Shown here one piece after another: positions 10,459 through 56,805 of a DNA stretch of 64,000 nt (positions within the stretch are counted from its first letter, which is position 1; each line of letters starts with the position of its first letter). The notes under the pieces are model-generated. The model worked only from the letters and a program-made list of their open reading frames with translations, was not told the origin of the DNA and did not search any database. Origin of the DNA: Synechococcus sp. (GTDB lineage Bacteria > Cyanobacteriota > Cyanobacteriia > PCC-6307 > Cyanobiaceae); contig JBJBEO010000001.1 of the NCBI GenBank assembly GCA_047284725.1, forward strand, positions 888,203 through 952,202, in the 5' to 3' direction. The position numbers were made by a program, and so were the translations under genes.

Positions 10459-10480
10459 ACGCTAGCTCCAACGAGCGGGC

Positions 10481-11474: not shown

Positions 11475-12969
<1,495 letters not shown>

Positions 12970-14651: not shown

Positions 14652-15446
14652 CTACGAACGGTTGCGGTACCAATTGAAAAGCCAGTCGCTCAAACGTTTG
14701 CGTTGACCGGAGGGCAAAGATTCATTGGAGATGGCTCTTTGCTCTGGATCCTGTTCGTTGACAACTGTTGAGGGAGTGAAGGAGTTGTCGAAAAGGAGGG
14801 CTGTGTCAGGCTCGTCGTTGTTCTGTTGCTCAAAACTCAGTCCAGTTTCGAGTGTCTCATTGTGCATGGCGACCAGGTAATCATCATGGGTGTAATCGCT
14901 TTCGTCGTGATGATCAGAATCGATTTGAATTCTTGTGCCTGGGGATAATGTTTCGCTCATAACACTTGATTCATGATCGGACGTGTCATGGTCCAACCCA
15001 AGTGCATGTCCGATTTCGTGCATGAAGACAGACAGAAGATCAATTTGTTGTGCTGCTTCGCTGCCGCCGAGAGCGAGTCGTGTGCCATCTGGCTGAACCT
15101 GGTATTCACTGGAATCCAAGGGAGTGGAATCGATAAACCAGCCATGTCCTGATGCATCACGATCCATGGGGATTCGGGAGTAGGAGTAACTCGCCAAAGC
15201 CATCCCATCCCATCTAAATCGTCAACTCTGATGTCCATTGATTGGAGATCGTTGAGTTGTTGAGTGGTCATTGAATGGGATGTGGACCAGTGACGCACTG
15301 CAGCGTCGTAAACCGCTCGAATCAGATCAGGCTCTATTTCGGAGAGATCATGAACAAGGGGGGTGGTGAGGTGATGCCCCTTGTTGCCGTGCTGCCGTCA
15401 CCGTCAACCAAAGCTGAGAGTTGGCTGAATAGAAATCCTTTGTCAT
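14652..15446 (-). pseudogene. Frameshifted orphan paralogue of the giant protein's C-terminal HExGHxxGxxH domain
   Basis: Two frames align without gaps to the giant C-terminus once one unit of (CCATC)3 at 15200-15214 is removed; HEIGHALGLDH at 14988-15020; 5' end uncertain (possible second slip at G6, 15358-15363; candidate ATG 15446). Confidence 0.75.
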
Positions 15447-15682
15447 TGGTTCTGACTTCAAGTCGTCAAGCTTGCTACGGTTCCAGGCATAGAAAGAGTG
15501 CCAAATCTGTAAAACTCGTAAAAGGGGCATGCCAGTCTGGTCAACAAAGTTACAATTGAACGGTAAAGTGTCGTTTTTGGCCTGCGAATGAAGCAATGCT
15601 TGCGCAAGAGTTTTATTTTGCGACGCACTTCTCATCTCGTTACGGTTTGCAAGATCATCCTCAGCTACGAAACTCATCCTTG

Positions 15683-16753
15683 ATGACATCACTGCCGAGT
15701 CGCAACATAGATCTCTTTTCAGCACGCGAGACGTTTTCCGATTATTTAGTTGTTGATAGGTTTTTGCGTGACTTGGTGGGCATGCGTGGCCTGAAAACGG
15801 CCTTCGACCGACAAGTTGTCGATGCACTCGTCGATGGGCCGAAATCCATGACTGAGTTGACCAATCGCTTGGGTGCTGATCAAGCAGGAGCCCAACTCCT
15901 CTTAGGCATCCTTGCCGTAAGCGACGTGGTTGAACGAATCGGCGATAAGTTCATGTTGACGTCTAGCTTCAGGCAGGCACTCCAGTTTCGCGATCTTCTG
16001 GAAGCGAAGTTGGACTTCGCCGGTTTTGTCCTTCTTGACTTCATCGATAAGTTTGACTATTTGGTGAATGATTCTTCAAGGTTCCAGGGTGAGGCTCAAC
16101 TCTTTAGATTATTTGATTACCAGAAGGCAAAGAATCCCACAGTTCAGAGCTACGCCTGGACAAAGGTTTGGATAAGGCTCACGACTTCATTGACTCGCTA
16201 CGAAGCTAAAGCTGCACTCAATATCTATGATTTTGGTAAGCACAAAAATCTGCTTGATATCGGCGGCAATAGCGGTGAGTTTGTACTTCGTATCTGCAAG
16301 GCACACGATGATATGCGTGCCACCGTGATGGATCTTCCAGTCGTCTGCGAGTTCGGTCATGATCACATCCTGGTCGAGCCAGAGCGGGAAAGAATCGGAT
16401 TTTTGGCTGGTAGTGCTCTGATCGACCCGATTCCTCAGGGTTATGACCTTATCTGTTTCAAATCCATGTTGCACGATTGGCCTGATGGAGATGTTTGCCT
16501 GTTTTTGCAGCGCGCCGCTGAGGCCTTGGATCCTGGAGGGACGCTTTTGATCTACGAACGAGCCCCTCTCGAATTCACCAAACGTTCATTGTCAATAGGG
16601 CAACTTCCCGTCTTACTTTTTTCACGCTGGTATCGCACAGAGCAATTGTACTGTGTACAACTTGAAAACCTTGGTTTTAAAGACATCAAAGTGCACTATT
16701 TGCAGCTCGACAGCCCCTTCTTCATCGTGGCAGCACAAAAACCAGAGATTTGA
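15683..16753 (+). CDS. SAM-dependent O-methyltransferase (class I, Methyltransf_2 type with N-terminal dimerisation domain)
   Basis: LLDIGGNSGEF, MDLPVV, FKSMLHDWPD, ALDPGGTLLIYE; ATG 15683 preferred over 15596. Confidence 0.85.
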   Translation: MTSLPSRNIDLFSARETFSDYLVVDRFLRDLVGMRGLKTAFDRQVVDALVDGPKSMTELTNRLGADQAGAQLLLGILAVSDVVERIGDKFMLTSSFRQALQFRDLLEAKLDFAGFVLLDFIDKFDYLVNDSSRFQGEAQLFRLFDYQKAKNPTVQSYAWTKVWIRLTTSLTRYEAKAALNIYDFGKHKNLLDIGGNSGEFVLRICKAHDDMRATVMDLPVVCEFGHDHILVEPERERIGFLAGSALIDPIPQGYDLICFKSMLHDWPDGDVCLFLQRAAEALDPGGTLLIYERAPLEFTKRSLSIGQLPVLLFSRWYRTEQLYCVQLENLGFKDIKVHYLQLDSPFFIVAAQKPEI

Positions 16754-16756
16754 ATC

Positions 16757-17737
16757 ATGCATTCTTTCATAGGTCCTGAATCCTCAGTTGGTCCGAGATT
16801 TAATCCAACACGTCTGAAACATTTATTTCACTACGACGATTATGTTGAAGTGACTATGCACTTCAAGTGCAATCTGAAGTGCGTTCATTGCATGATAGAA
16901 AATACTATGGATTGGCTAGAGCCTGAAGGCCTGACTCGTCTCGAAGAAGTATGTGCCTATAACGACCAATATCGACGCTGGAGGGGAATTATCTTTACTG
17001 GTTCAGAAGTCACTCTTAATGCAGACTTGCCAAAGTGGGTAAATATGGCACGTCATCATGGTTTCGAGCGAGTGCGGATCCAGACCAACGGTATTCGATT
17101 GTCTGACTACGCATATTGCCGAGAGTTAATTGATGGCGGTGTCAATGAATTCTTCATAAGTGTCACAGCGGCCGATGCCGAAACCCATGATTCGATTACG
17201 AAAGTCAAGGGGTCGTTTGAAAAGACAATTCGTGGTTTGCATAATCTCGATTCATTCAATGATGTTGTCTCGATCACAAATACTGTCGTTACCACTCTCT
17301 CCTTCACACACTTGCCAATACTTGTGCGAGAACTTGGACACCTGAAGAACCTGGCTCGTATGGACTTCTGGAATTTCTGGCCGATGAATGAAAATGACGA
17401 CAAGGATCTGATTGCTTCTCATCTGGATGTCTTGCCATGCCTTCGAGACGCCATCGCAGAGGCACACAAGCTCGGTCGAGCCGTCGAAGTTAAGAACTTT
17501 CCCGAATGTTTGCTTGCTGATGATGGTCAATCATTAGATAATGGACAGCCAAAGCTTGTGATTGATCCAGCCTTCTGGCCTGAGTTTATGCGTAATGGAT
17601 TCAATCAGTGTGTCTTTCGTGACCAGTGTGGTTCTGTTAAATGTCTAGGTTTGAATACCGCTTATGTGAAGAAGTACGGATGGCACGAAGATGTTTTGGT
17701 GCCATTGCCTGTTCTGGAGTCCTTCGACAATGCATGA
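16757..17737 (+). CDS. Radical SAM enzyme, HxsC-like, with C-terminal Cys cluster
   Basis: CNLKCVHC (CxxxCxxC), FTGSEVT, IQTNG, NFPEC, CVFRDQCGSVKCLG. Confidence 0.85.
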   Translation: MHSFIGPESSVGPRFNPTRLKHLFHYDDYVEVTMHFKCNLKCVHCMIENTMDWLEPEGLTRLEEVCAYNDQYRRWRGIIFTGSEVTLNADLPKWVNMARHHGFERVRIQTNGIRLSDYAYCRELIDGGVNEFFISVTAADAETHDSITKVKGSFEKTIRGLHNLDSFNDVVSITNTVVTTLSFTHLPILVRELGHLKNLARMDFWNFWPMNENDDKDLIASHLDVLPCLRDAIAEAHKLGRAVEVKNFPECLLADDGQSLDNGQPKLVIDPAFWPEFMRNGFNQCVFRDQCGSVKCLGLNTAYVKKYGWHEDVLVPLPVLESFDNA

Positions 17738-18923
17738 ATCCTCTTCGATAAATGCTGATGCCGTTCGGATCTTTATTGAAGCAGACGGCATTGTGCTTGA
17801 GCTCGGGCACAAAGTAACCCCAGATGGAAGTGAATCTGATGTGATTAAAGGCCTATCTCGTATAAAGCTCACTCCACAGACCTTTCGTCGTTTTGGACTG
17901 GCATTGCATGATGCAATAAGTCTGTTGCCCAAAGAGTCTGTTCTTCGTTCTGGATCGATTCCGACTCCAACGCCACAACGCTCTTCCGCTGCAAAAGCCT
18001 CGCTGGAAGAGTTGCTTGATCCCACCATCAACCTTTCCTCATCCTCAGCGCCGACACCGATTTCAAGCCAGGATGCACAGCGGGTGTTCAAGCTGATTGC
18101 CAGTCTCGGTGCACCTTATGTCCATGAGCGCTCTTTTCGGTTCCGTGAAGGAGAGTTATTGCCCAATCGATTCCTGCTGACTGTTGGACGCTCAGGCAAC
18201 GGCAGCACTTCCGATGATGCTTTGATGGACCTATTCACTAACCTTTCCCTTCCTGCACCATTCCTCGAAGCTGCCCGCCAGCACATTTCGGCGGCCCGCT
18301 GTATACATGTTGGCTTTGAGGGAGACGGCGACAGTCCGCTGCTGAAGGTCTATTTGGAGATTGGAGGTCCTGACCAAATTAATCAGTCAACGCCTGATGC
18401 CGCAGTCCTTGAGCACATTGCGTACAAGTGGGACGTAAGAAACAGGGAACGACGAACCGTTGCTCGTTACTGGTGGTATCCATACCTAAATGCCAGTGAA
18501 TTGAAGAAACGAGTTGTTGAATTGTATGCAGATCATGATTTAGAGGCTCAGGATATTGCCCTTGGTGCCATTGAAATGGCAGCGCAAAAGATGCCTGAAC
18601 GTGACATTCACTACCTTGAGGTCGAAGAAGAGGGCAACCCAAGGCGTTCTTACTCGATCAATTTTTATGATGCGGGACTTCAGGTCCGGGATTTGCATAC
18701 ATTGCTGGCACGCATGAGAAACTATTTTGATGTATCGCCAGGGAAGTTTCAGATGCTCTATGACCAGATTAAGACAAGGCGTTTGGGACACATCGCTGGA
18801 GGAATTCACCGCAATGGAAAAGGCTTTTTTAATGTCTACTATGGTCCTCAGTTCATGGATTACGATTGTCAGGGCCATTGGCGCAGTGCTGTGTTTAGGG
18901 GCAAAGACAACTGCGATTTCTGA
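17730..18923 (+). CDS. DUF3467-like domain fused to a PatF/LynF-like (ABBA) prenyltransferase-type domain
   Basis: ATG overlaps the rSAM stop by 8 bp; N-terminal ~65 aa align to the DUF3467 at 20488; HERSFRFREGELLPNRFLL, VGFEG..LLKVYLE, FFNVYY. Confidence 0.6.
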   Translation: MHESSSINADAVRIFIEADGIVLELGHKVTPDGSESDVIKGLSRIKLTPQTFRRFGLALHDAISLLPKESVLRSGSIPTPTPQRSSAAKASLEELLDPTINLSSSSAPTPISSQDAQRVFKLIASLGAPYVHERSFRFREGELLPNRFLLTVGRSGNGSTSDDALMDLFTNLSLPAPFLEAARQHISAARCIHVGFEGDGDSPLLKVYLEIGGPDQINQSTPDAAVLEHIAYKWDVRNRERRTVARYWWYPYLNASELKKRVVELYADHDLEAQDIALGAIEMAAQKMPERDIHYLEVEEEGNPRRSYSINFYDAGLQVRDLHTLLARMRNYFDVSPGKFQMLYDQIKTRRLGHIAGGIHRNGKGFFNVYYGPQFMDYDCQGHWRSAVFRGKDNCDF

Positions 18924-18925
18924 CT

Positions 18926-19795
18926 ATGCATATCAACGACCGCTTCGAATATATCACTGAGAAAGATTTATATCATAATTATTGCCTCTGGCCCTACCTG
19001 CCAGTTACTGCTTCCATCGACAAGTTTCGCTCTATCAATCTTCTCTATCACGCTTTTGACGTTGCAGAAATCGATCACCGTATTTTTGATTTTGTCGAGG
19101 CGATACGTGATGGCATTGGCAGCTTCCGCACGGTGTGGGGAACTAAACTCATTAACAATAATTTGGCATGGGAATTTTACTTCTATGACTATGGGAGGCG
19201 TGTACGCGAGCTTTCGATCAGCAGGTTGATCAAGATTTTGGCGCCATTCACGCACTGCTCCGTTTCAGTCAACGAAAATATCAATTATTTTATGTTTTCG
19301 TTTGATGTCGATCAAGAGCTGATTACAGGTGCTCGTCAGCTTGATATTGTTCACATGTATCTCGGTAATGCTGGAAGCACTGTCTCCTCAGGAATTTCCT
19401 ACGCCCTGAGCCAGCAGTCATCCCGCCTCGAGAATCTGTATTACTTCTTCGAAGTGCCGTCCATGTTGCAACAGGTGATGGACAAGGTTGGTGACTCGGC
19501 CTACGTCGATGAAGCAGCGATTCCTATGGATTTTTTGGTGTGGCCGGAGCTTCGATCATGCACCACTATCTGTGTGGCCAACAAACAGAGCAATGACACA
19601 ATTTACTTTTCTGGGTGCACTGTAGATCAGCTTTTGTACTTTCTGATTCGGATTGGGTATCCAAGTAAGATCATTGACTTTGTGCAGTCTAATCGCAATA
19701 ATCTTGACCATCTTCTTTACGACGTGGGTTATGATTACCGCACGAAGGGTGATAAGGTTGAGATCGTCAAGAGTGGCTATTACGGGATATTTTGA
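18926..19795 (+). CDS. Hypothetical aromatic-rich protein, possible ABBA/PT-barrel fold
   Basis: 289 aa; starts 2 bp after the previous stop; five apparent beta-hairpins separated by helices; fold is inference. Confidence 0.6.
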   Translation: MHINDRFEYITEKDLYHNYCLWPYLPVTASIDKFRSINLLYHAFDVAEIDHRIFDFVEAIRDGIGSFRTVWGTKLINNNLAWEFYFYDYGRRVRELSISRLIKILAPFTHCSVSVNENINYFMFSFDVDQELITGARQLDIVHMYLGNAGSTVSSGISYALSQQSSRLENLYYFFEVPSMLQQVMDKVGDSAYVDEAAIPMDFLVWPELRSCTTICVANKQSNDTIYFSGCTVDQLLYFLIRIGYPSKIIDFVQSNRNNLDHLLYDVGYDYRTKGDKVEIVKSGYYGIF

Positions 19796-20418
19796 ATCAA
19801 TCCTATTCGACAAGAATAGTCGTGGCTGTTTCTGCACCGGTTGGTGGTGGTAAAACCTCTCTGGTGCGTGGTCTGGCGCAGGCTATGGATGGTGTTCCTT
19901 TTCATTTCGATCACTACGAAGACCTGACTCAATTGCCGCTTGAAGAAGTGAAGGCATGGCTCCATTTCGGTGCCGAGATTGCAGACCTTTCGATTCCCGC
20001 ACTGACGGATGACCTGATGGATCTGAAGCATGCCAGCTCACCGGCCGTACCCGCCAGTGGAGTGGCCATTCAAACCGCTCAATTTGTCTTTTTTGAGACC
20101 CCGTTTGCCCGGTGCCACCTTGAGTTAGATAATCTCATTGACTTAGCGATCTGGATTGACACACCTCTCGACGTCGCTTTGGCCCGCAACATACGGGAGT
20201 TCATGCGGCAACCTGAGTTGAGATCGAAATTGTCTGCGTGGCTTCCTGACTACCTTGATGGCTATCTCGACGCAGTGCGTGACATGCTGTTGATGCAGCA
20301 GGAGACTGTTGGTCGTGCAGCAGATATCACCCTTGATGGGACAGCCGATCTAGCGACAAACTTATCCATCGCAGAAAGAGAGATACGCAGGCTTCTGAAA
20401 AACAGATCATGCGACTGA
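19792..20418 (+). CDS. P-loop kinase, uridine/nucleoside-kinase-like
   Basis: VVAVSAPVGGGKTSL Walker A, FDHY, WIDTPLDVALAR, ADITLDG; TTG start overlaps previous TGA. Confidence 0.75.
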   Translation: MNQSYSTRIVVAVSAPVGGGKTSLVRGLAQAMDGVPFHFDHYEDLTQLPLEEVKAWLHFGAEIADLSIPALTDDLMDLKHASSPAVPASGVAIQTAQFVFFETPFARCHLELDNLIDLAIWIDTPLDVALARNIREFMRQPELRSKLSAWLPDYLDGYLDAVRDMLLMQQETVGRAADITLDGTADLATNLSIAEREIRRLLKNRSCD

Positions 20419-20487: not shown

Positions 20488-20781
20488 TTAACCTTTGAAT
20501 GCGCCGTAACGCTTGACATGCTCTGACAATACGGTTTGGCTGACCTTGGCTAGTTCCTTGGCGACAGATGGGGTTAGGTGAATTCGATCGGTGAGCTTAG
20601 CTTGCCACTCACCCTCAGTTAATCCGGGCTCAGTGCGTCCAAATAGCAAGGTTATATCCTCACCAGAGCACGACACATTGCAGACATCTGCGAAGGACGT
20701 TGACAGGTTCTTGTCGTCCCAGGGGGCTTTACGGCTCTGGCTAGAAAGTTGCATGCTCGCAGAGGAATTAGGGGGGGTCAT
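20488..20781 (-). CDS. DUF3467 domain protein
   Basis: WDDKNLSTSFADVCNVSCSGEDITLLFG...LTDRIHLTPSVAKEL...EHVKRYG; starts 22 bp after the giant gene stop. Confidence 0.8.
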   Translation of the reverse strand: MTPPNSSASMQLSSQSRKAPWDDKNLSTSFADVCNVSCSGEDITLLFGRTEPGLTEGEWQAKLTDRIHLTPSVAKELAKVSQTVLSEHVKRYGAFKG

Positions 20782-21253
20782 GAGAAGTTAATGGTAGTAA
20801 TAATCACTTCCGGCGAAAGAGGCCTAACAATGGATCCAAGAGCTCCTGCCCCCAGCCGAGAACGTGAAGCCTCCTTCTTGCCTCTGGGGCCGTAGGAATG
20901 TGATTTTTAATTCTCGCCTCTTTTAACGTGTTATCTGGACTCCTCCTGTCAGAGGTGACCTCGGCAGTAGTCAGTGTTGAAGTTTCCAGCTCAACATCTT
21001 GAACATCGATCGTGTCAAGGAGTCTGCGCTGCTCTGCGCTGAGTCGACGCTTCTGCTCCCAAATTGCAATCGCAGCAGCGCGTGTGTTCTCCAGAATCTG
21101 TGGCTGGATGTTTGGCAGCGATTTGCTCCCGTCCCCAGATTCAGTTAGCCTGTCTGCATCAGGATTCACGCTGGCGATGAGGTTTTCCTCATGCATCTCA
21201 GGCAGATGGCGCACACCAGCTTCCAGCATCTGTTCCATGAGCCCCTTCTCCTC

Positions 21254-21286
21254 ATGGGATATACCGATAAGGTGTCCGATCTCGTG
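21254..21286 (-). other. Metzincin-type zinc motif HEIGHLIGISH near the giant protein C-terminus
   Basis: HExxHxxGxxH followed by GLM (possible Met-turn); preceded by DAAGHGWFID. Confidence 0.8.
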
Positions 21287-21714
21287 GAGCTGCACAGTTA
21301 AGAGATCCATTTGGTCGTAGGCGGACGATTCACTTGCCGCAACATAGAAGCCTTCGTCAATTTCTTCGAACTCCTCATTGACATTAGGAGTTGCATCAAT
21401 GAACCAGCCATGACCGGCCGCATCGAAATCGAGCGTGATGGTGTTGCCCTCAGCTGTTGCAAGGATGGAACCTTCAAGATCGTCCACACGTAGATCCACC
21501 GAATCAAGGAAGGTGAGTTGGGATTCAGATAGCTGGGCGGACTGATCCCAAAGATCGATGGCTGTTGAGAAGGTGCTGTAAAGCAGCTTGCGGTCCACCT
21601 CATATAGTCCTTCGCTGTTGGTTTCTGCTCCGGTAACTCCTGCTCTCGAGTCGGGGGTACCACCGGCAAGAATGTTTTCGGAGTCTTGATGGGCCAAGTT
21701 GGGAGTATTCGTTC

Positions 21715-22770
21715 TAATGCGGAAGTTATCGAAAATACTGCTCCCGCCCAGGGTCATAAGGCCTACCTCACCGTCTACGACTATGCCGTTGTAGTTGTAG
21801 CCGATGACCGCATTGCCGTTTACGTTGACACTCACGGATCGGCCTTTGAGCGACACTTCGAGGTCATACTCGGTCAGCTCGTTTAGAGTCCATGCCGCCG
21901 AGGCGTCGTGGATTATTCCGGAATCCCTGTAGTGACCAATGACCACCTGGTCGGCGTCTTCATCCAGGATGGCGAACTTGAAGTCATCTTCCTTGTAGTA
22001 GTCGAATACCACTCCACCGAAGGATTTGACTTTGAGATCAGTCCAGATGTTGAGGTACGAATCGTAGGCAATGTTCAAGCCGATGGTCGACAGTGCCACG
22101 TTGTCGCCAATTGCTGTGGCTTCGTACTTCTCGGTTTGCGAGTTGACCGTCCACGTGTCTTTTTGGACCACGAAGTCATCGGCGATGCCGTCGGAAAAGT
22201 CTTCGGTCTCATCGTAGGTGTAATCCGGAGGCAAAACCTTGACGAAGACATCGTCAATGCGGGCCTTGGAGTCATAAGAGCCGATACCTATTAGTCCGTT
22301 ATTGAGGTTGTACTGGAAACCATCATCATCGATACGTGGCTCGTAAACGTGGGTGAAGATATCCTTGCCATCAATTACTAACGATGCCGTTAAGCCGTTG
22401 ATTGACAGAAGCACGCTGTAGTCCTTGTTGGGCCTGAGCTTGGCATTCGTCTGTTTGATCTCGTGCCAGCCGCTCGCATCGCGATAGCCCATTTCCAACT
22501 TGTCGTTGGAAATGTTGACCCCGGCCCACTTGAAGTCTGTTGGGTTCTGGTAGTCGAAGACGATGTAGCTGTTCGCTTTCGAGCCGCCGATGGGCTTGGC
22601 GGCGTTGATCGTCGCCTCGATTTCGTAGTAGATCGGCAGGTACTCGTCGAGGTAGTAAACAGCAACGGCATCCCCGCCGGGCGTAGCTGGTGCCACCTCG
22701 AGACGGCCCTGATTGACGTTGAAGACTCCGCTGTCGACCAGGAATCGCTCATTGGTGCCATTGTTGAAGT
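21715..22770 (-). other. Two tandem concanavalin/LamG-like beta-sandwich domains (approximate limits)
   Basis: Paired motifs YIVFDYQNPTDFKWAG and GVVFDYYKEDDFKFAI, ending GLIGIG..ARIDDV and GEVGL..SIFDNF. Confidence 0.55.
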
Positions 22771-23049
22771 CGGCACCTCGCAGCACGTCGCGGCTGCCGC
22801 CAGGGATGTTGCCTGGCTGCGGATCCTGAGGAGCACCTGTCTGTTCTTGCCATAGAGCATTGTCTTTCTGGGTGGTCAGCCCCAGTTCTCCGTTGGGCTC
22901 CCCATTGCGATCGGGGTTGTTGAACGTGTCTGCCGCGCGCGTCTGATCGGCGCCTTGGCTCTCCGAAAGGTCATAGAGGAAGTCGAACAGCGCTGGCGTG
23001 ACTTGACGACTCACAGTACCAAGGCCGAATGCCGCGAACGGCACCAAAT

Positions 23050-25870
23050 AGCTGTTGTACTCGCCGACCCAGTCAATCAGACGGTCGCCACCTGTATTGG
23101 CGATGAGCACATCCATCCCCGCGCCACCGAAGGCTCGATCCTCCCAGAAAGGATGGGTCTCCGGCTGGTCGTTGAGCTCACCGTTGGTGCCCAAGACATC
23201 GTCGGCGTTGAGCACGTCATTGCCCCAGCCACCGTAGATGCTGTCAGTTCCCGTACCTCCGACCAGCCAATCGTTGCCAAGGTCACCAAAAAGTACGTCA
23301 GCGCCATCGTCGAATGCGGTTCCGTACTCCAGATGTTGCTGTAATTTCGCACCTGTGTCTTTGTCGTCGAAGTTCAGGAACCACTCGAAGCCGTCGGTGG
23401 TTTTGTTGAGCGAGCCGTCAACGTTAAGCTCGATCTTGCGCAGTGGATCGAACTCGTCGTAAACCGCGAACTCTCCGTCGCGCTCACTTGAAAAGCGCAG
23501 TGCGTCCCCTGGGTTGAACGGTCTTGCCCAGTCGCTGCGCTGGATGGTGATGATGCCGTTGCCATCGTCGACCTGCGTGTAAGCCAGGGTCAGCGCCTCG
23601 GCTCCCGACATCGCGTCATCACCCGAGCCGCCGTGCAGGAAGTCGGCCTGAAGGCCGCCGAAGATGATGTCGTTGTAATTGTCCGAGGCGTCCCAGAGCT
23701 GATTGTCGAAGCCTTGGGTGATCGGGTTCACGTTGAACGGCGTCAGGTTGACGCTCTTCTTCAGCGCACCGGACACGTTGATCGTAGCCTGTTGCGCCTG
23801 GCCCGGCGTAGAAATTTCGAGGTCGAGGTTGCCCGCATCGATGGCGTCGATGCCGAAGAACGACTCGCCCGTCGAGGCATTGCGGCTGGTGTAGATACGT
23901 CCGTCATCACCGATCACGCCGTCCTGGCCAGTGCCACCGGAGATCCAGTCGTTGCCGTAGCCACCGATCAGGTCGTCGTCGTCGGCATCACCGAAAAGCA
24001 CGTCGTTGCCGACCATGCCGTAGATGAAGTCGTCACCCGACTCACCGTGGATCTCGTCGCCGGCGCCGATGTCGCTCTCCTGGCTGGCAGGGTCGTGATC
24101 GATGCCGCCCTGGGTGTAGTCGACCAGGTCGACGGCGCGAACGACGATGCGCTCGCTGCCGCGATTCTCGGAACTCGAGGACTGGTCGTAGGTAAACGCG
24201 AGCATCGCACCGCTGGAGTCGACCAGGCGGTAGATATTGGCGTTGTCACCGGCGATGGCATCGGAGTCGCGCCCGTGGCGTTCCTCGAACACCAGGTCGA
24301 CCGCCTGATCCTCGACGGTGTACTCGTTGCGATTGATGCGCGTCGCCGCGCCGCCGAAGATCAGGTCCGCCGCGTCCGGACGATCCGTCGGATCGACCAA
24401 GCCGAACAGAATCGAGCTGCCGCCGATGATGTCGTCCTGGCCAAGGTTGCCGAAGATGACATCGGAGCCGCCGTTGCCCTCGATGTAGTCGTCACCGTCG
24501 TCGACGCCCTCTATCGAGGCGTTGACTACCAGCAGACCGTCACTGTCGCGGTACGCACCGACCGTCGTCTGGGCGACGTTGCCGGCGTCGAGTTCGATGA
24601 ACGAGTCACCCTGTATGGTGTCGTCACCGAGCTGACCGAAGATTTCGTCATCGTCAGCGCCACCCGCGATGTAGTCGTCACCGAAGCTGCCGGCGAACGG
24701 AGTATCGGAGTGGTCGAGCAGGACGATGTCGCGTGCCGTATCTCCGCTCGGGTCGAGCTCCGCCGCACCGGCGATCAGCGCCTTTCCGTCGGTGCCACCG
24801 ACGATGTCCTCGCCGTAGATGGTGCTGCCCTGCAGCTGGCGGAAGCGTTTGCGCAACGAATCGCCGCGACGAACGATGGTCGCGTTGTCACCGGCGATGG
24901 CGTCGTTTCCGGCGCCGCCGTCGATGAAGTCGCCCGCGTCCTGGCCATTGGCGACGTTGTGCCCCCCGATGATGTCATCATCGCCGTTGTTGCCGAAGAT
25001 TGTGTCGCTACCCTGCTGACCAAGGATAATGTCGTCGCCGGCATCGCCGGTGATGAAGTCCGCGTCGCCGAGCAGGTCGTCGAGAGGGAACCACACGCTG
25101 CTTCCGAGAGTTTCGGTCTCGATGGCGGTGAAGGTGAATGGCGGAGTCATCGTCGCTTGCGGCAGGGACGCCGGATCCAGCACACCTCCGAGCGTCTGCT
25201 CGATGCGGCCGTTGTCGCCGAAGATGAGGTCCTCACCGTCGTTACCCGAGATGGTGTCGCGACCGGCGCCACCGAGGACGATGTCATTGCCCTCGTCACC
25301 GGCAATTCTGTCGTCGTCGGGACGTGTGATGAACGTCTGAATACGATCGACCGCGGCGTCGGCGTCAAGAGCTAGGTCCATGGTGCCGTGATCGCCGAAG
25401 ATCAGGTCGTTGCCGGTGTTGCCGTGGATGTCATCACCGCCGGTCCCACCAAAGATCAGGTCGTCGCCGGCATCACCGAAGATGAAGTCGCCCGCGCCGT
25501 TGTCGGGGATGGTGCTGGTGATGAAAGTCACCTGCTCCGTTGTGCGGATGCGCTCCGTACCCGGCTGCAGGTCGATACGACCGTGGTCGCCGAAGATGAT
25601 GTCGCCATCATCTCCGCCGTGGATGGTGTCCGAACCGGTCGCCATGTCGTCGCGGCTACGCGAGTCGGCTGTGTCGACGTCGACTACGCTCAGCCACAGC
25701 GTGGTGCCGTCGCGGTGCGGCAGGTCAACGTTGAAGCCGGAGTCGCCGTAAATGTGGTCGGTGCCTTTCTGGCCGAAGATCTCGTCGTTACCGGAACCGC
25801 CGGCGATGTGGTCACCGTCCATGCTGCCGAAGATGGTGTCGTCGCCACCACCACCGAAGATGGTGATGCC
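23050..25870 (-). repeat. RTX-type Ca-binding nonapeptide cluster (GGxGxDxIxG)
   Basis: Many units such as GGGGDDTIFG, GGSGNDEIFG, GNTGNDLIFG, GGYGNDWISG, GGTGTDSIYG; a further degenerate cluster at ~28360-29500. Confidence 0.9.
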
Positions 25871-27119
25871 GCCGGTGAACTCAAAGGTGCCGTCTTGCTC
25901 GTCGGTGTCGACGCTGGAGATACCGCTCCAGGCCGACGCATCGATGATGTCGTTGCCGGTGCGATCGAAGGCGATGGCGTTGCTGGTGATGCCGGTGACC
26001 ATCGTGATGGTGGCGTCGACGCCGAGTTCTTCGACCGTCAGGCCGCCTGTCAGCGTTAATGTTGTCGCGGTGACGTCTGCGATCTCGTAAGCGCCGTCGT
26101 TGGCGATGCTGCCCTCGATCTCCACCGGGCGACCGACAACGTAGCCGTCGTCAAGCCAGCTGCCGCCGTCGTTGCGGCTGATGGAGCCCGCAGCACCCAG
26201 ATCGACGTTGGCCTCCACTTTGATCGGCGCCGAAGGCACCGAGTCGTAGCGGCTTCCATCTTGCGAAGTGTCGCCGTAGACCACCAGCACGCCGGTGGCC
26301 TTATTAATTACAATTGAATCGCCGCCGACGATGGCTTCGCCTGTATCTGAGACGACCTTGGTCAAGGTCCCGCGGATGGTCTCGGTGGTAAGTGCTCCAA
26401 CTACAGTGATAACGTCGCCATTGATGTCCGCGATCTCATAGGTCGCATTGTTGTCGTCGGTGTCGGTGACCTTGATTGTGTCGCCGACCTCGAAGCCCTC
26501 ATCGATCCAAGAGGTGCCGTCAACGCGGGTGATATCGCTGCCGTCGAAACCGAGGTCGTTGTTGACCTCGAAGATGCTATTACCACCACCGTGAATTACG
26601 GTGACGAGTCGTTCCGCCGCGCCCACCGTGCCGTGGCTGGTGTCGTCGACCTGGAAGTTGTCGTTGCCGACACCCAGCATGATCTCTGTCACCTCGATGT
26701 CGTCGAAGGTGATACCACCCTCGAAGGTCACCAGCTCGCTGCCATCCTGCGCGATGCTGATGTCGAAGGTAGTGGTCGGCCCCATGCCCAACCCCTCGAG
26801 ATTGGTCGGGTTGTCGAGAACGATGATCGGGTTGTTGTCCAGCGTCGTCGAGTGCAGGCGACCCGAATCGTCGGCGAAACTGTTGTCGTTGTAGACATTT
26901 AGCGTGTCAGTCTTGGTGGTCTCGTCGGTGTCATCGACGAAGACGTTGGGCTCGGTGGTCGACTCGGTCGGCAAGACGACAGCCTTCGACAGCGACCGGT
27001 CGCGACCCAGCGCGACACCACCCTCGATGACCACCGGACCTTCGATGGTGTTGAGGCGGTGCTGACCGAGGGTCGGGGCGCGCTCGACATCCTGTCCTGC
27101 CGTGGCCTTGAAATCGGGG

Positions 27120-28200
27120 TTCTGATCGATCACGACAGTCTGTTCTTGGAACCAGTCGGTGTCGGTGAACACCATTTCCGTGGTCAGTTCACCCGTCGCG
27201 ATATTGCCGAGCAACGAGAGGATCGACTGGCCGTCGGAGAACGCGCTCACCGTGACATCGGTGTCCGGCTGGCTCAGTAGGCGCACCGTGTAGGTGTCGG
27301 TGCCGGCGCCCACGACATTGTCCTCGATGACCAGCGTGCTGCCGTTGGACTGCTGTACCAGAATCCCTGGGGTGTCGTCGTCGAGTACGCGGATGCGCAG
27401 CTCGTTGGCATCGGCGTCGACATACACGCTGTCGCCCTCGTTAGCCGTGCCCTCGAACGAGCTGGTCAACAAGTGGTCGATACGGACTGATTCCGGGTTC
27501 TCCTCGGTAGCGTCGTCGCTGGCCTTCACGAACACCGTCTGCTTCACGTCGAAGGTGCTGGCGTCGAAGGTGAGTGCACTGAGCGTCGTGGTGAAGGTCG
27601 CGTCGGTGTAGAACTCCACCTCAGCGTTGCTTTCGATGTTCACTGTGACGATCTCACCGGCCTCAGGCGCCACCGCAAGGCGCACGTCGTAGGTATCGGT
27701 GATCGCACCGGCGCCGACTACCCCTTCGAGAACAAGTGTGCCGCCGTCGGTCTCGTCGATAATGACGCTGCCGAGATCGTCGTCGCGTACCAGCACGACG
27801 GCATTCTTGATTTTGGCGCCGTTGTACGGCTCGTCGGCGCTGTGAATCATGTGGCTGACCATGACGTTGCGGTCGCCCTCGATGACGTCGTCACCGATGG
27901 CGCGGACGAAGACTTCTTGGTCGCTGTCCCAGTCGACGCCCGCGGTAAAGGTCAGAACCACGGCTTCGAAGAAGTTGACGCCATCGGTCGAGACCAGCAC
28001 GGTGCCGGCGTCGCGGCTGCCACCGTCGCGTTTCGGCAGTCGCCTGTCGTGCGAGGACGAGGACGCCGCCGACACCGTGATGTAGACCTCGGTGCCGTCA
28101 GTCACGTCGGCGTCGGCGACCGACAGACCAACCATGTAGGAGTCCTCGTTGTCGACGCTGTCCTCGGTGACGACAATTTCGCCGTCAATGTTGTCGATAA
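27120..28200 (-). repeat. Three Calx-beta-like Ig domains (approximate limits)
   Basis: Repeated V.E....D[ST]Y.V.L...P...V.V ... LTF....W...QxVxV...DD pattern. Confidence 0.6.
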
Positions 28201-31200
28201 CCACCAGGCCGAGCGTCGGGGTGGCGACGTTGAACGGCACGCCCTCGATCAGCAGGCCGTCGTAGTCGGCGTCGCCGCTCATCGAGGCGTGGTTGATGGC
28301 CGCGCTGCGACCCTCGAGGTCCTGGCTCACCACGCGCTCGGTGACGTCGCCGCTGATGTTGAACGTATCCGAACCCAGACCGCCGATGATGGTGGTGACC
28401 GCGTTGGCGCGCGTGCCGAGTACGAAGAAGGTGTCGTCGCCCTCGAGTCCATCGACCTCGACTGCTTCCTCGACGCCATCAAGGCGAATGTTCAGGCCAG
28501 CTCCGAAGATGCCGTCCGGTGTGATGATGAAGGCATCGTCGGCCTCCGTTCCTATTGCCACCACCGTATCGAAGCCGTCACCACCGTTGATGCTCACTGG
28601 CGCGTTGACGTTGTACTCGATCTGGTCTTCGCCGTCGCCGGAGTTGACCTCGATCTCGCCATCGGCCACGAAGGCGCGTACCACGAACAGGTCGTTGCCC
28701 GACTCACCCTCCATGCGCAGCTCGGCCTTATTGGAAAAGACGTTGAACTCGTCCTGGCCCTCGCCACCCTGCAGCACCGCCGCTTCACTGATGCCGAAGC
28801 TCAGCCAGTTGTCGTTGGTGATGCCAGTTAAGCGGATCTCGTCGGAGTCCGAGGTCAGGTCGATGCCTTCCTCCCACGGAGCCGTTCCCGGCACCGCGAT
28901 CGGCACCGAACCGAACACCTGGCCGACCTGGAACATGTCGTCGCCCTCGCCGGCGTCGATAGTCATAACTGTGCTGGTGTCGTCGATGTAGAACTCGTCG
29001 TCCGCGTTGCCGGAGAGGATCTCCAGACGGCCGTTCGTGGTGCCGTCGTAGTTAATACGCTCGACTTCCGGATTTAGCACCGTGGCATCGTCGCTGACCG
29101 GGTTGAGCCACGCCACGAAGTGCTCGCGAATGAGGAAGTAGTCCTTGCCGTCAGCATTGTTGGCGTCTCCGATTTCTGTACCGACGATGGTGAGCTTGTC
29201 GGCACCGTCGTTCTCGGCGCCCGTATCGTGAACGTTGATCAGGTACTCGGTGCGGCCACCCGTGACGTTGATAACGACGCGGTCGGTCTCGGCACCGCCG
29301 TCGATGTCTAAAGTGTCACGAACTTGTTTGTTGCCCACGGGCACACCGTTGACCAGCTTGTCATCATCGAACTGCCGATCGTGGCGCGTGGTCATCCTCG
29401 TCATGTGATCGACGGTGATGAGGTCTTCACCCTCCTGGCCGAATACCTGGGTATGTCCGATGATGCCGGCTTCGGTGGTACCACCTTCCGGACGAATCTC
29501 GATCTCGTCGTCGTCGGCCTCCCCGAGGATGTCGATACGCTGGGCATACGTCTTGCCCTCAAGTATTATTAGTGCCCCGACGCCTGTGTCGTCGTCAAGA
29601 TAATCACCTTCGATCCGTATATAATCGGTCGCATTGATCAGGCTAGTGGCGGCTAGGTGCAGGTTGTCGCCGGCGCGCAGGAAAATGCCGTTTGAGTCGA
29701 TCGGCAACTGGGTCGCCAGCTGCGTCGGGATGACGTCGGCCGCCAGGACGGTACTGTTGGTCGAGACCAGTAAGTCGTCCCCCGCGGTGAGCGTGACGTC
29801 AGCGGTGGTCGCGTGAACCAAGCTGAACTGTCGCAACGTGATGTCGGTGCCGGCGTCGCCAGTAATGTTGATGAAACCGGTGATGGCAGCGTTGTTCTCG
29901 ATGATCAACGCTGCCGCGGTCGCATCGATATCTACCGAACCCGTCGTAGCCGTGACGTCAGAGTCGTCGATGGTGACGCTCTGCGCGGCGGTCAGAGAAA
30001 CATCGGTCCCGGCGATCAGCACTGAGTTGTCAAGGCCCTGAGCCGGTGCATCAACGTCGTCGTTGGTGTCATCAGCGATGGTGAGGTTCATGCCAGCCAT
30101 CGCCACAATCGCGTCGGAGGCACTGACTGTTGATCGGTTCACGACCAGTACGTCATTACCGGCGGTGAGCGTTACAGCGCCACCTTGCGCCGTCACATCC
30201 GAGTCGTCAATGGTGACGTCATCGTTGGCGGTCAACACCACGAAGGTGCCTGCCGTGATGATCGAGTTGTCTTCGCGATCGACGGTTTCGCCTATGTCGT
30301 CAGCATTGTCATCCTGGATTGTGAAATTAGTGCCTGCATTAGCCGTCAACGATATTGCAGCAGTCGCGGTTGAAGTGTTGGTGATGTTGATGTTGCCGCT
30401 AGTGGCCTCTAGATCCACATCGCCCTGTGTCGCCACCACTTCGGAATTGTCGATTGTGAGGTCGGCACCCGCTGTCATAAAGACGTGAGTCGCGGCGTTC
30501 ATCACCGATGCCCGCGCGATCACGACATCGCGCCCGGCATCGATCAGAACCGAGGTGCCCGTGGTGATGTCGGTAGTGTTGTCGAATAGGACATCCTGCG
30601 TGGCTTCCGCAATAAGTGAGGAACCGGCATTGATGGTTGCGTCGATTGCCCTGATTGAACCGCTGGATCCGTCGGCGCTGTTGTAGTCGGCTTCCAGGAC
30701 GATGGCTTTTGCTGCGGTGACCTGTGTGTTGGTCTCGAGGAATAGGTCGTCGCCGGCGAACAGCGAAACATCACCGCCAGTGGACTGAATCTTGATCAAC
30801 GTCTTGACGGTGAGGTCATCACCAATCGAAGCGGATTCGTACGCGTGTACGACTATGTTGCCGCCGGCGGTAATGTTTTCGGCCACCGTGATCGGGCTCT
30901 GCGCCTCGAACAGAACGTCGCCGAATGCCTCGATACCGGTGGCGGACTGGTCGTTGTGTGAGATGGTCACCCCACCGACGTCGACCGCACCGCTGTTGTC
31001 GATGTAAACGTCGCCGCCGGTGGACTTGGCCTCAATGCGCTGCGCCTGCGTGTTGATCGACGCGCCGTTGGAGCCGATGCTGCCGACCGCGAACAGCCAT
31101 AAGTGGCCCGACAGCACGTTGGTCGACGACAGGTCGGCGTCGAAGATGCCACCCTCGGGCGAGGTGATGAAGGCGTTGTTTCCGTTAGAGTCGATCTGGT

Positions 31201-34200
31201 CGAGGTAGAGATGCTGTGTGCCCGAACCGGTGGCCGAACGCTCGGTGATGTAGATGTTGCCGAGCACGCCATTGCTGGTGGCTTTGAGGCTTCCGGTGCC
31301 GGAGTACGAGCTATCGATGTCGAGATCGTTGCCTAGCTGACCGATCGCTCCTGGAAGACCGGTGCCGGCGACCAGGGTGATGTGGTTACCGATGACATCG
31401 GCCTTGGTCTGTGCATCGATGCCGGTGGCGTCTGTGGAGTCCGGATCGAGCGGATTAACGAGGTCAACCGCGTCGAGGATCGACGCGTCCGCTTCGAGCC
31501 AAACGTCTCCGCCAGTCGAAAGAATGTTGCGGACGTTCATCGCCCCCGACGTTTCCGCCAGGAAGATGTCACCGCTTGCCGTGGCCGTGATGGTTCCGGA
31601 AACAGTGTCGAAGTCGAGCAGGTTGCCGGATGCGCCGATGCCATCGAGCGCCCAGAGAATGATGTTCTGGGCCTGGATGTTGGTGAAGTTGTTCTCCAGT
31701 CCATCGAGGATCGAGCCGTCGGCGGCGATCAACACCGCGTCGCCGCCTCCAGCGAACACTGTGCCCACATTCAGATCACTGGCGTCTTCGATGATGAATA
31801 CATCTGCCGCGGCACGTGCGGTGAGGATTCCGCCGCCTACCAGGTCAACGTGGATTTCCTCGCCGTCCTCTCCGATGGTGCCGCTGCCGGCCTCAAGGAT
31901 CAGGTTGTTGGCACGGAAGTTTGTATCTGTATCGCCGATATCCGCCGTCAGGATGCTGGTCCCGACCTTGACACGGACCTCATCGCCAGTGACGGTGTCG
32001 CCCGACTTGATGGAATCGACGTAGATGGTGCCCTCGGAACCGAGGAACACCTGCTCGTCGGCATCGACGTTGACGACTCCGCTGGCCTCGATGTCGATGT
32101 CCTCCACAAGGTTGATGCGGCTGATGTCGATCTGCTGGGTGAAGCCGCCCGCGATATCTACCGTGACTCCGGTCTCGTCGTCGAGCGTGCCGCCGCTGTT
32201 GAGCGTCAGCTTGCTGGCGGTGACATTCTCGATAAGGAAGAACTCGTTGGTGCCAGTGACGTTGGCGCTGTTGCCGGAAATGCTGATCACCATGCCGGCC
32301 TGGAAGCCATCGGCCATCCAGCTGCCGCTGTTCCGGGTGATGGTGTCCTGCCCGGAAATCTCGTCAGCAAAGCTCACCACCACTGCGGTGGCAGTGGCGC
32401 TGACCACCGGCGCGTTCGGGTCAGGAACCACATTCAGCAGCTGAACCGTGGCGAGTTCAGCGGAAAGCGCCTGATCCAGCGTGATGACGTTACCCACCAC
32501 GCTCTCGATCCTATAGGTCTCAAAATCTTCGTTCGCGTTGACGGCATTGCCGACGACCTGGATGAAGTCTCCAGCAGTGAACGCGGCGAAGAGGTCTCCC
32601 GAAATGCGCGTCAGCGTGCCTTTGCCATCACTGTTGCCGAACGCCACCTCCGAAGTAATCGGTGCGCTCTTGAGGTAAGTGACATCGTTACGCTCGGCAG
32701 CCGCCAGCGTCACACGCTCATCATCGGTAAGGGTGATGGTGACGTCGACGTCGACGTTGCTTGCCGTGTTGAACGAAGCCGGCACAACAACGTTATCATC
32801 GTCATCGATGAAGCCGACCGTCAGCACGTTGGTGTTAATCGCAGTGATGATGTAGCTGCCGTTGTCGTGGCCCTCGACGAAGACCTGATCATTAACCGAG
32901 AAGCCCGACCAACCGCCTGAGAAGGTGATGTCCGAACCGGAGAAGCTCATCAGGCCTGACTTCGGTGCAGTGCGGAGCTTGGCGACGTCGATGTCGATGA
33001 AGCCCGAGGTCTCACCGATGCCTCCCCCGACGATCAATGTCACATCGTTACCAGTGATGTTGGCCTCTTCTTCACTGACCGTGGTGTCCGAGACGCCTTT
33101 CAGCAGACCGGCACTGATGCTGAACAACAGCTCTGCCTCTGTCCACACCTTGAAGTTGCCCTCGACGTCCTGTTCTTCGGCGGCCGACAGTTCATACGAG
33201 AAGGCCTCATCAAAGGTATCGACGTCTGAAACGACGCCTAGGTTCTCAAGCAGCGTGTGAAGCGCGTGGTATTGGTCGGTGCGTGATTGCTCGAGCGCCT
33301 GCACCTGCAGCTCGTCGTAGTTGAGCCCAGTCGGGTCGGTGTAGAAGGCGAACTCTTCGGCCGTCAGCGCGACCTGGAAGTCGGCATCGTACGTTCCAGG
33401 GTCGGATTGCATGTTGCGGAACTGCCAGTACGAGCGATATTCCTGCGTACGCTGCGACTCCACCTCGATCTTGGCGTTCTCGATCTTGTCGAGGGCACCG
33501 AGCTCTTCGGTGAGGGAAAGATCCGACCACACGCCGCCCTTGAGTTCGTTGTATGTGCGTTCGTCTCGGGTCTGATCGTCGTTGACGTCGAGCAGATTGC
33601 CGTTGTCGACCTTCACCCAGACATCGCCTCCGGTGATGATCTCTTCGAGGCGAAGGTCACCATCGACCTCTTCGACGTACACGTCACCGGCAGCCTGGAT
33701 GCTGACCTTGTCCTTCAGGAACGTTGGCGATATGGCGGAGTTGATCTCAAGCGGAGTGGCGGCGCTGTTGCCAACGCCACCGGTGGCTGAGGTCAGTGTG
33801 ATGCTGCCACCGGTGATGTGGCTGCCGCCGAACGGCGTGCGGAGGTCAGTTTCCCCAACCCTGATCGCACCCGGCGCAAACAGCTCGACGTCGCCGCCAT
33901 TCTCTGCGGTTATCTCTTCGATCGCCAACTCGCCGATCTGTTCCCTAATGTAGATATCGCCATTCTGGGTTGTTGCTTTCAGGCTCGAAGGATTGACGAC
34001 GGCAGAGGTACCGGTACCGACCGCGGTGACGTCCGCCGTTTCGTCTGTAAGTGAAGCCGCTGCGTTAAGCGTGAGCACCTGCTGTGTGACGTTGTCGATG
34101 AGGTATGTACCGTCGTTCTTGTTGGAACCCACGATGGTGATTGTGTTTCCGGCCTGGAAGCCGTCGAGGGTCCAGTCACCACTGGGGCGTGAAATGAGGT

Positions 34201-53800: not shown

Positions 53801-53905
53801 GCTGGTGGCGTCGGAGGTGTGGTCCACCTCGAGGAGATCATTGATGCTTTCCTGCAGCACCGACGCGCCACCGTCATTGGTGGTGGTCGATGAGGAGACG
53901 ATCTT
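44847..53905. repeat. Near-perfect intragenic tandem repeat; period 4230 bp (1410 aa); ~2.14 copies
   Basis: Offset 4230 throughout (44941 = 49171 = 53401); duplicated ORF-track entries in several frames; identity ends at 44846/49076 and 53906/49676; only difference noticed is at 53407. Confidence 0.95.
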
Positions 53906-56551: not shown

Positions 56552-56805
56552 GGCTGAACGAATCGCCTAATCCTTTACTCATAAAGGGGCCAGCTTTGGC
56601 ACGCAATGTCGCATCCGCTTTTAAGTGGGCATGCCTAAAATCAGTGTTTAATCGGATTCTCACCAGTCTTTAAGATTCAAGTTTTTTAGTTGAGCTATAA
56701 GCATTTTGAAGTCTTAATTTGTCGCTTCAAATATTAAAAAACCGTGAGCAAATGTTCAATAATTTCTCGCTTTTGTTATGACTCAAGGGCCTTATTTCTT
56801 TGGTG
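56552..56805. promoter_or_regulatory. AT-rich divergent promoter region between the giant gene and sapC
   Basis: Head-to-head genes; strongly AT-rich sequence at 56640-56800; individual boxes not assigned. Confidence 0.55.

Follow-up and report, generated by a model that had tools for sequence, protein, structure and literature searches.

The window analysed here is a 64,000-nucleotide stretch from Synechococcus sp., and all feature coordinates given below are positions within it. On its plus strand, at 17730..18923, a gene encodes a protein of 397 amino acids in which a DUF3467-like N-terminal domain is joined through a linker to a prenyltransferase-type barrel (barrel 1). The gene that follows encodes a second barrel of this type (barrel 2), and both belong to a conserved cassette tied to genes for giant proteins, a setting overlooked in an earlier note that had described the first gene as a fusion of DUF3467 with a cyanobactin-prenyltransferase-like domain. 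In our best reading, to which we give about an even chance, barrel 1 would be a subunit that carries out group transfer (of the prenylation type) within a tailoring cassette tied to giant secreted proteins.

Within the translated open reading frame (ORF), residues 1-68 (17730..17933) form the N-terminal domain, which was delimited by DSSP and a family hidden Markov model (HMM) and contains three strands and one helix; residues 69-110 (17934..18059) form a Ser/Pro-rich linker that is predicted to be disordered, with a predicted local distance difference test score (pLDDT) below 50 at residues 70-86; and residues 111-375 (18060..18854) form an ABBA-like prenyltransferase-type barrel, to which DSSP assigns 10 strands and 7 helices. 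The linker described in the earlier note is real, and the strings quoted there are all present in the translation, including HERSFRFREGELLPNRFLL (residues 132-150, nucleotides 18123-18179), VGFEG (residues 194-198), LLKVYLE (204-210), and FFNVYY (366-371). The start codon was placed at ATG 17730 in preference to a possible upstream ATG at 17691, because it overlaps the stop of the preceding radical S-adenosylmethionine (radical-SAM) gene (ATGCATGA), is preceded 10 nucleotides upstream by GGAG, and is also where the relatives start. The gene lies in a low-GC island, with a guanine-plus-cytosine (GC) content of 0.46-0.53 at 14-22 kb compared with 0.52-0.66, and mostly 0.57-0.66, elsewhere in the window.

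Relatives of the barrel 1 protein are numerous, with 286 found by homology search and 810 clusters at 50% identity. Two samples of them were used: 121 family representatives, a subset of 150 listed clusters from which the others were dropped for size, and an alignment of 72 sequences (A1), composed of the query and 71 of 120 listed relatives that are 31-78% identical to it. A1 was restricted to single-barrel forms of 346-471 amino acids, with tandem-barrel and truncated forms left out, and the length of the linker varies among its members (columns 100-230). Forms of about 700 amino acids exist in which DUF3467 is followed by two tandem copies of barrel 1, one of which bears only the NCBI name "DUF3467 domain-containing protein", and a Stellaceae contig (L005) carries two full-length DUF3467-barrel genes in tandem, at 1910-2998 and from 3201. 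Many relatives (P0043, P0046, P0055, and others) carry the JGI label "tryptophan halogenase" and contain no such domain. One relative (P0183) has a flavin adenine dinucleotide (FAD)-binding domain fused to barrel 1 and another has both an FAD-binding and a sulfotransferase domain; the name may derive from such fusions or from the true halogenase genes that adjoin the cassette in two loci of Planctomycetota.

The DUF3467-like domain and its free counterpart

The earlier note identified the N-terminus as DUF3467 from an alignment with the stand-alone DUF3467 protein of the window, and this assignment stands at the level of the family profile and fails for the sequence taken on its own. The barrel 1 protein has no match to PF11950 in Pfam even at E<=1, BLASTP finds no similarity between its N-terminus and the free protein of the window, and a local alignment of the two in the register given by the earlier note reaches a score of 32, which was equalled by 73 of 2000 shuffles. 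An HMM built from the N-terminal 68 residues of A1, by comparison, matches all five stand-alone DUF3467 proteins tested at 17.7-38.1 bits, including the window's own at 25.6 bits, and PF11950 itself is found at the N-terminus in 42 of the 121 family representatives (best E 1.6e-16), as well as in 7 of the 72 members of A1 and 6 of 14 other relatives. On the basis of the A1 profile and the PF11950 matches among relatives, the homology was accepted as real, albeit at the profile level, and its predicted arrangement in the AlphaFold2 model is beta3-alpha, with strands at residues 11-17, 20-29, and 38-47 and a helix at 49-64. The fusion is a common architecture in a large unnamed family and not a one-off, as seen in the same 42 representatives.

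The free protein of the window (20488..20781, minus strand; 97 amino acids; PF11950, 2.5e-12) is encoded directly downstream of the giant gene discussed below. Its distribution was followed in 58 loci with a barrel 1 relative, obtained from a scan of one genome per species, in which partner genes were counted by tblastn with the window proteins. A fused DUF3467 domain is present in 29 of the 58 loci and a separate free copy in 13 (after second-domain echoes were removed from 19 flagged), 11 of which also possess a fused copy, the same two-copy pattern as in the window. The free gene lies upstream of the methyltransferase gene in 11 of the 13 loci and beside HlyD-type secretion genes in the other two, and in L040 and L042 copies of DUF3467 are embedded in operons for type I secretion. 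As defined by Pfam, PF11950 is a stand-alone protein, with which the N-terminal domain aligns by profile and whose cut-off many relatives pass, whereas here it is joined to an enzyme domain and often has a free second copy nearby. A search of the language-model Atlas for DUF3467 look-alikes outside PF11950 yielded nothing usable. DUF3467 may act as the "targeting domain" proposed in the earlier note, and a possible role as a docking module is considered below together with the giant proteins.

Two unrelated barrels of the prenyltransferase type

Prediction with AlphaFold2 on alignment A1 gave a model of barrel 1 with a pLDDT of 87.9 and a predicted template modelling score (pTM) of 0.72, in which residues 130-375 form ten strands and seven helices in the order α-ββ-αα-ββ-ββ-αα-ββ-αα-ββ, one ααββ unit being without its helices. 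In a Foldseek search against the PDB, all 35 matches shown from ranks 1-50 are ABBA prenyltransferases at a probability of 1.00, and we know of no solved structure with this fold that belongs to anything other than a prenyltransferase. The best matches are LimF (3.2e-8) and PagF (1.1e-7), then KgpF, PirF, DciF, and PatF, so that the cyanobactin enzymes span E values from 3e-8 to 6e-6, followed by CdpNPT (5.7e-7), DMATS enzymes, NphB/Orf2, and AmbP1. The 10-stranded prenyltransferase barrel predicted in the earlier note is thus borne out by the model. Because template modelling (TM) scores are modest, at 0.35-0.53 by target length, with root-mean-square deviations of 5-11 Å, we regard modelled barrel 1 as a divergent member of the ABBA/prenyltransferase-barrel fold. 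Neighbours in the language-model Atlas offer a soft lead in the same direction, with PF11468 at 0.96 (11% of members) and 0.90 (41%), and PF11991 at 0.87.

The cyanobactin enzymes are the best structural matches, being single 10-stranded barrels of about 290 amino acids that act on peptide residues, and this likeness of fold would be expected if barrel 1 were a member of the PatF/LynF/PagF family acting on a small ribosomal peptide. Such membership is nevertheless very improbable, and the filing of the gene under that family in the earlier note fails at the level of both sequence family and gene context. No NCBIfam or Pfam family model matches, and small-molecule enzymes such as CdpNPT score almost equally in Foldseek. 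Barrel 1 differs from the cyanobactin enzymes in having no detectable sequence similarity to them, in the unit that lacks its helices, and in the additional DUF3467 domain and linker, and its context is without protease, macrocyclase, and precursor: as the earlier note had stated, cyanobactin genes are absent from the window's scanned ORFs, neither these ORFs nor the annotated loci yielded a protease of the PatA/PatG type or a precursor, and a search of the DNA preceding the methyltransferase gene for a short ORF that might encode a precursor gave no convincing candidate. Small-molecule ABBA and DMATS enzymes (NphB/Orf2, CloQ, EpzP, AmbP1/AmbP3, FgaPT2, and CdpNPT) share the fold with both barrels, and the Atlas neighbours likewise carry PF11468 or PF11991. 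The present case differs from them in that neither barrel falls in a Pfam family, in that a radical-SAM enzyme accompanies a pair of barrels unrelated to each other, with fusions at some loci, and in that giant genes lie alongside.

Across the 72 sequences of A1, 34 columns are invariant, mostly polar and at alternating strand positions. They include E133, R134, S135, R147, H193, G195, F196, E197, K206, Y208, E210, and K233, and further along the chain Y247, E297, E300, R305, S307, N311, Y313, H354, H360, R361, F366, and Y370, many of which fall within the conserved motifs HxGFE, KxYxE, RxSxxxNxY, and GHxAGGxHR. R147, K206, Y208, K233, Y247, R305, Y313, H354, H360, R361, and Y370 are located on strands. 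The stretch proposed in the earlier note to hold a catalytic Glu motif of the PatF/LynF/PagF family includes the invariant E133-R134-S135 and R147. According to a review (PMC7973389), basic residues and tyrosines in ABBA enzymes neutralise or hold the diphosphate. The invariant Arg, Lys, and Tyr pattern of barrel 1 fits such diphosphate-binding residues, as far as can be judged from the alignment, and barrel 1 may be an active transferase whose diphosphate-activated (prenyl-type) donor would be held by the invariant Arg, Lys, Tyr, and His residues and which would alkylate a nucleophilic or aromatic acceptor.

Several findings, in addition to the modest TM-scores, count against a prenylating role. 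The barrel 1 protein matches no prenyltransferase model in Pfam or NCBIfam at E<=1 (PF11468, PF11991, PF19156, and the LynF/TruF/PatF models), prenyltransferase families match none of the 121 relatives at E<=0.01, and neither phmmer nor the family profile finds a prenyltransferase among PDB sequences. Five invariant acidic residues (E133, E197, E210, E297, and E300) lie in the very polar interior of the barrel, an unusual feature where a prenyltransferase would shield its carbocation, and the cassette contains no isoprenoid gene, nor was one seen in the other annotated loci. These observations would suit a barrel that has kept the fold and not the chemistry, either as a binding or scaffold subunit, for instance one presenting a substrate to the radical-SAM enzyme, or as a protein using some phosphorylated or anionic ligand other than prenyl diphosphate. 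The presence of a nucleoside-kinase-like gene in 15 of the 58 loci, the occurrence of the nucleotide-acting MoaA among the named proteins closest to the radical-SAM enzyme, and the smaller number of invariant basic residues in barrel 2 point the same way. However, 34 invariant and mostly polar columns over 72 sequences look catalytic and unlike a scaffold, and all Foldseek matches shown for both barrels are prenyltransferases, so that we consider a non-prenylating barrel quite improbable.

Barrel 2 is encoded immediately downstream (18926..19795, plus strand; 289 amino acids) and has no Pfam or NCBIfam match. An AlphaFold2 prediction based on alignment A2, which comprises barrel 2 and 40 translations drawn from 56 loci with a match, reached a pLDDT of 92.1 and a pTM of 0.91, and all 32 Foldseek matches shown are again ABBA prenyltransferases, with TM-scores of about 0.5 and with AmbP1 (3.1e-6) ranked ahead of AmbP3, DciF, LimF, and KgpF. 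It has fewer invariant basic residues in A2 than barrel 1 has in A1. A paralogous origin of the two barrels was considered and rejected at the sequence level, as BLASTP found no match between them and hhalign gave a probability of 0.5%. A homology search recovered 1289 relatives of barrel 2, for which "hypothetical protein" is the only name given among the matches listed. Prediction of a complex between barrel 1 (residues 105-397) and barrel 2 returned scores of 0.00, 0.47, and 0.00, which speak neither for nor against binding.

A conserved cassette and its accessory genes

In the window, the barrel genes are preceded on the plus strand by genes for an O-methyltransferase of small-molecule type with a dimerisation domain (15596..16753; PF00891, 6.2e-23) and for a radical-SAM enzyme of 326 amino acids with a CxxxCxxC motif (16757..17737; PF04055, 1.4e-17), and are followed by a P-loop kinase gene of the uridine-kinase/PRK type (19792..20418, plus strand; 208 amino acids; NF006085 at 4.1e-25, under cut-off). 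The best NCBIfam models for the radical-SAM enzyme, HxsC4 and MoaA, both score far under their cut-offs. Among the 58 loci, barrel 2 is present in 56 (49-67% identity), the radical-SAM enzyme in 47 (55-71% identity), the O-methyltransferase in 38, and the P-loop kinase in 15, and the gene order is mostly that of the window, namely O-methyltransferase, radical-SAM enzyme, barrel 1, and barrel 2. A single stop-free ORF encodes the two barrels in L030, L031, L034, and L043, all from Planctomycetota, and the radical-SAM enzyme and barrel 1 form a single ORF in L039. The cassette, to which the P-loop kinase sometimes belongs and in which barrel 1 is the third gene, is horizontally mobile. We suggest that the two barrels and the radical-SAM enzyme would act in one pathway, and perhaps as one complex.

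Additional genes accompany this core. Among crude ORF clusters assigned by Pfam, WelO5-like iron/2-oxoglutarate enzymes occur at 13 loci, SapC at 10, B12 radical-SAM enzymes at nine, and TPR proteins at seven, along with components of type I secretion (OEP and HlyD). Four loci without a giant gene were fully annotated, and three of them (L002, L043, and L055) contain a class I methyltransferase and one (L055) a TonB-dependent receptor. True FAD-dependent tryptophan halogenases lie beside the cassette at L043:5422-6945 and L055:11722-13227 (PF04820, E 1e-148 and 3e-157, respectively).

Much of this inventory is what would be expected of an ordinary small-molecule cluster, in which both barrels would be aromatic prenyltransferases, the product would be a prenylated, O-methylated, and sometimes halogenated and C-methylated aromatic or indole metabolite, and the link to giants would be indirect, for example through co-regulation, a shared island, or a compound acting on the same surface process. 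The dimerisation-domain methyltransferase, the WelO5-like and B12 radical-SAM enzymes, the class I methyltransferase, the halogenases, and the TonB-dependent receptor all favour such a cluster over a tailoring role for giant proteins, and so do the fusions of barrel 1 with FAD-binding and sulfotransferase domains and the strong conservation of the radical-SAM enzyme and barrel 2 across phyla. WelO5-type enzymes accompany AmbP-type prenyltransferases in hapalindole pathways, and at L002 a kinase, a WelO5-like enzyme, a class I methyltransferase, and a B12 radical-SAM enzyme stand in a row with no giant gene. On the other side, the accessory enzyme types of the cassette are all known from peptide-modifying pathways too, namely those of peptides made on ribosomes and modified after translation (RiPPs) and of proteusins, and a small-molecule cluster leaves unexplained both the DUF3467 copies within the type I secretion operons of L040 and L042 and the presence of three kinds of giant genes beside the cassette in 28 of the 58 loci and in several phyla. 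Taken as a complete account, including an indirect link to the giants, this alternative is somewhat unlikely. With regard to the acceptor alone, for which the earlier note favoured a peptide or protein, both a protein and a small molecule are possible, a small-molecule pathway accounts for the genes conserved alongside about equally well, and such a pathway is nearly as likely as direct modification of the giant.

Two further sets of genes near the cassette were considered and set aside. Next to folD, at a distance of 3 kb upstream from the island, is a polyprenyl synthetase gene (11502-12452, plus strand; PF00348, 1.2e-58). As a supplier of the prenyl donor it was rejected, since the DNA around it has the GC content of the host and is not part of the island, and since no equivalent gene was seen at the other annotated loci; its position is accordingly taken as coincidence, and it is probably a housekeeping gene and not a member of the cassette. 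The minus-strand ORFs near the cassette that had been grouped as "cluster 4" were recognised from codon-position GC as antisense artefacts of giant genes on the plus strand.

Giant secreted proteins beside the cassette

The minus strand of the window carries a gene for a giant RTX/filament protein (20804..56551); the gene abuts the cassette, and its one reading frame, of about 11,900 codons, is interrupted by a TAG. The C-terminal 1500 residues match HemolysinCabind (3.8e-35), as in RTX proteins, and a Matrixin-like domain (1.8e-6), whereas the N-terminal part contains LktA_tand_53 repeats (9.4e-16). The end of the protein (the last 800-1600 residues, e.g. 9151-10708), which takes in the Matrixin-like domain, is 39-46% identical to the upstream giants of L025, L044, L035, L036, L015, and L030. 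Over residues 9151-10708 the identity to cassette-adjoining giants of other phyla is 41-46%, and the same range applies to the C-terminal 1600 residues compared with the giants of L025, L044, L035, L036, and L015.

As a raw count, an ORF of at least 1000 amino acids on the same strand adjoins the cassette in 28 of the 58 loci, and the giant gene next to the cassette of the window lies on the opposite strand; three further loci with only antisense or unrelated long ORFs were not counted. Proteins of at least 2000 amino acids account for well under 1% of bacterial genes, and 20 of the 28 adjoining giants reach this size. Of these 28 genes, 22 lie downstream and run off the end of the sequence, five lie upstream, and one is complete. 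The loci concerned span Pseudomonadota, Cyanobacteriota, Planctomycetota, Actinomycetota, and a deltaproteobacterial metagenome-assembled genome (MAG), and three kinds of giants can be distinguished among the neighbours of the cassette, namely filament proteins of the LEPR-XLL class, RTX proteins whose end is metzincin-like, and a protein resembling autotransporters.

The LEPR-XLL motif (NF012209) was detected at the N-terminus of 15 of the 20 downstream giants tested, most of which possess LktA_tand_53 repeats too. Within the first 130 or so residues, the sequence F-x-LE-x-LEPRLLLSAD is near-identical in the giants of L020, L026, L048, L041, L014, L037, and L042, which span Beta-, Gamma-, and Alphaproteobacteria, and the Planctomycetota giants of L024 and L058 have looser LEPR-type N-termini that the NCBIfam model does not score. 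The autotransporter-like gene is found on a Pontibrevibacter plasmid (L059; NZ_CP049813.1, 2157-15801), where it encodes 3926 amino acids with a signal peptide and is immediately followed by barrel 2 and the radical-SAM enzyme, with neither barrel 1 nor the methyltransferase present; barrel 2 and the radical-SAM enzyme may therefore constitute a minimal core.

This recurrent adjacency supports a tie between the cassette and the giants. We propose that what the pathway makes would ultimately be attached to the giant secreted filament protein encoded next door or would act in concert with it. The acceptor that we favour is a residue of the giant itself, which would be modified in the cytoplasm before export, with the DUF3467 domain serving as a docking module that binds either the free DUF3467 protein or a segment of the substrate. 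In this specific form, with direct modification of the giant and docking through DUF3467, the proposal is rather unlikely. A comparable logic is known from HlyC with RTX toxins and from Aah/TibC and HMW1C with adhesins, in which genes for cytoplasmic modifiers adjoin the gene for the large exported substrate and modification by the neighbour-encoded enzyme precedes export. These modifiers, however, are acyl- or glycosyltransferases with no relation in fold or sequence to barrel 1, and we know of no prenyltransferase-barrel or radical-SAM enzyme that acts as such a modifier of large secreted proteins. A more elaborate version, which we hold to be distinctly unlikely, is that RiPP-like machinery would tailor megadalton LEPR-XLL/RTX giants, in place of small peptides, by cytoplasmic prenylation and other changes at defined residues before type I secretion, with DUF3467, fused as well as free, recognising the substrate, for example through the LEPR-XLL motif, and with halogenases, a B12 radical-SAM methylase, and a kinase added in some hosts.

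Other observations at these loci weaken the case for a tie to the giants. No giant was found in 30 of the 58 loci, though many of these are on short contigs, and L002, L003, L043, and L047, which have full 10-kb flanks, show none. The giant of the window obtains no LEPR-XLL score, its N-terminus reading SLEALQEGYLLPG, and its frame is interrupted at 53405-53407 by the TAG, which leaves ORFs of 1048 and 10842 amino acids. The sequence around this codon is YWKEVPES*LIPQGLNVSG, and other repeat copies of the same gene have Q at that position; the stop may be a genuine nonsense mutation, an artefact of sequencing, or a codon that is read through.

The ABBA fold as such is already known, and what is new here is its widespread fusion with DUF3467, its occurrence as two unrelated barrels that accompany a radical-SAM enzyme, and the association with giant genes. 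To our knowledge, earlier descriptions of barrels of this type present them as enzymes that stand alone and serve secondary metabolism or the making of cyanobactin peptides. Our literature search, which had subscription journals outside its scope, found no paper joining an ABBA prenyltransferase with radical SAM and type I secretion, or radical SAM with SapC and RTX, and none on the function of either DUF3467 or LEPR-XLL. The two barrel families are large, unnamed, and widespread, as indicated by the 810 clusters and 1289 relatives mentioned above, and in about half of the loci they adjoin giants of almost unknown biology, including the LEPR-XLL class. If the giant is indeed modified, this would represent a new kind of bacterial protein lipidation; under the RiPP-like version, a giant of the bacterial surface would for the first time be seen to undergo ABBA-type lipidation, and DUF3467 and LEPR-XLL would acquire functions. 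If the product is instead a metabolite, the cassette would specify a new and widespread biosynthetic pathway, and on either reading DUF3467 would gain its first functional context.

Several smaller features accompany the giant gene. On its far side, in a low-GC patch, lies a gene for a SapC-family protein (56800..57561, plus strand; PF07277, 2.1e-75), and in Nostocales, Neptuniibacter, Kistimonas, and a Xanthobacteraceae MAG the cassette likewise has SapC genes at its flanks. A metzincin-like ORF of 183 amino acids (14652..15203, minus strand; PF00413, 2.9e-9) contains the motif HExxHxxGxxH and resembles the C-terminal Matrixin-like domain of the giant; its tblastn matches fall within the C-termini of the giants of L044, L025, L030, and L015, and it could represent either a leftover or a redundant copy. 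Finally, a block of about 2,400 residues starting ADVEASLNSITLQAGDD occurs twice, in apparently identical form, in the N-terminal third of the 20804-53332 ORF, which reflects either a very recent internal duplication or an effect of assembly.

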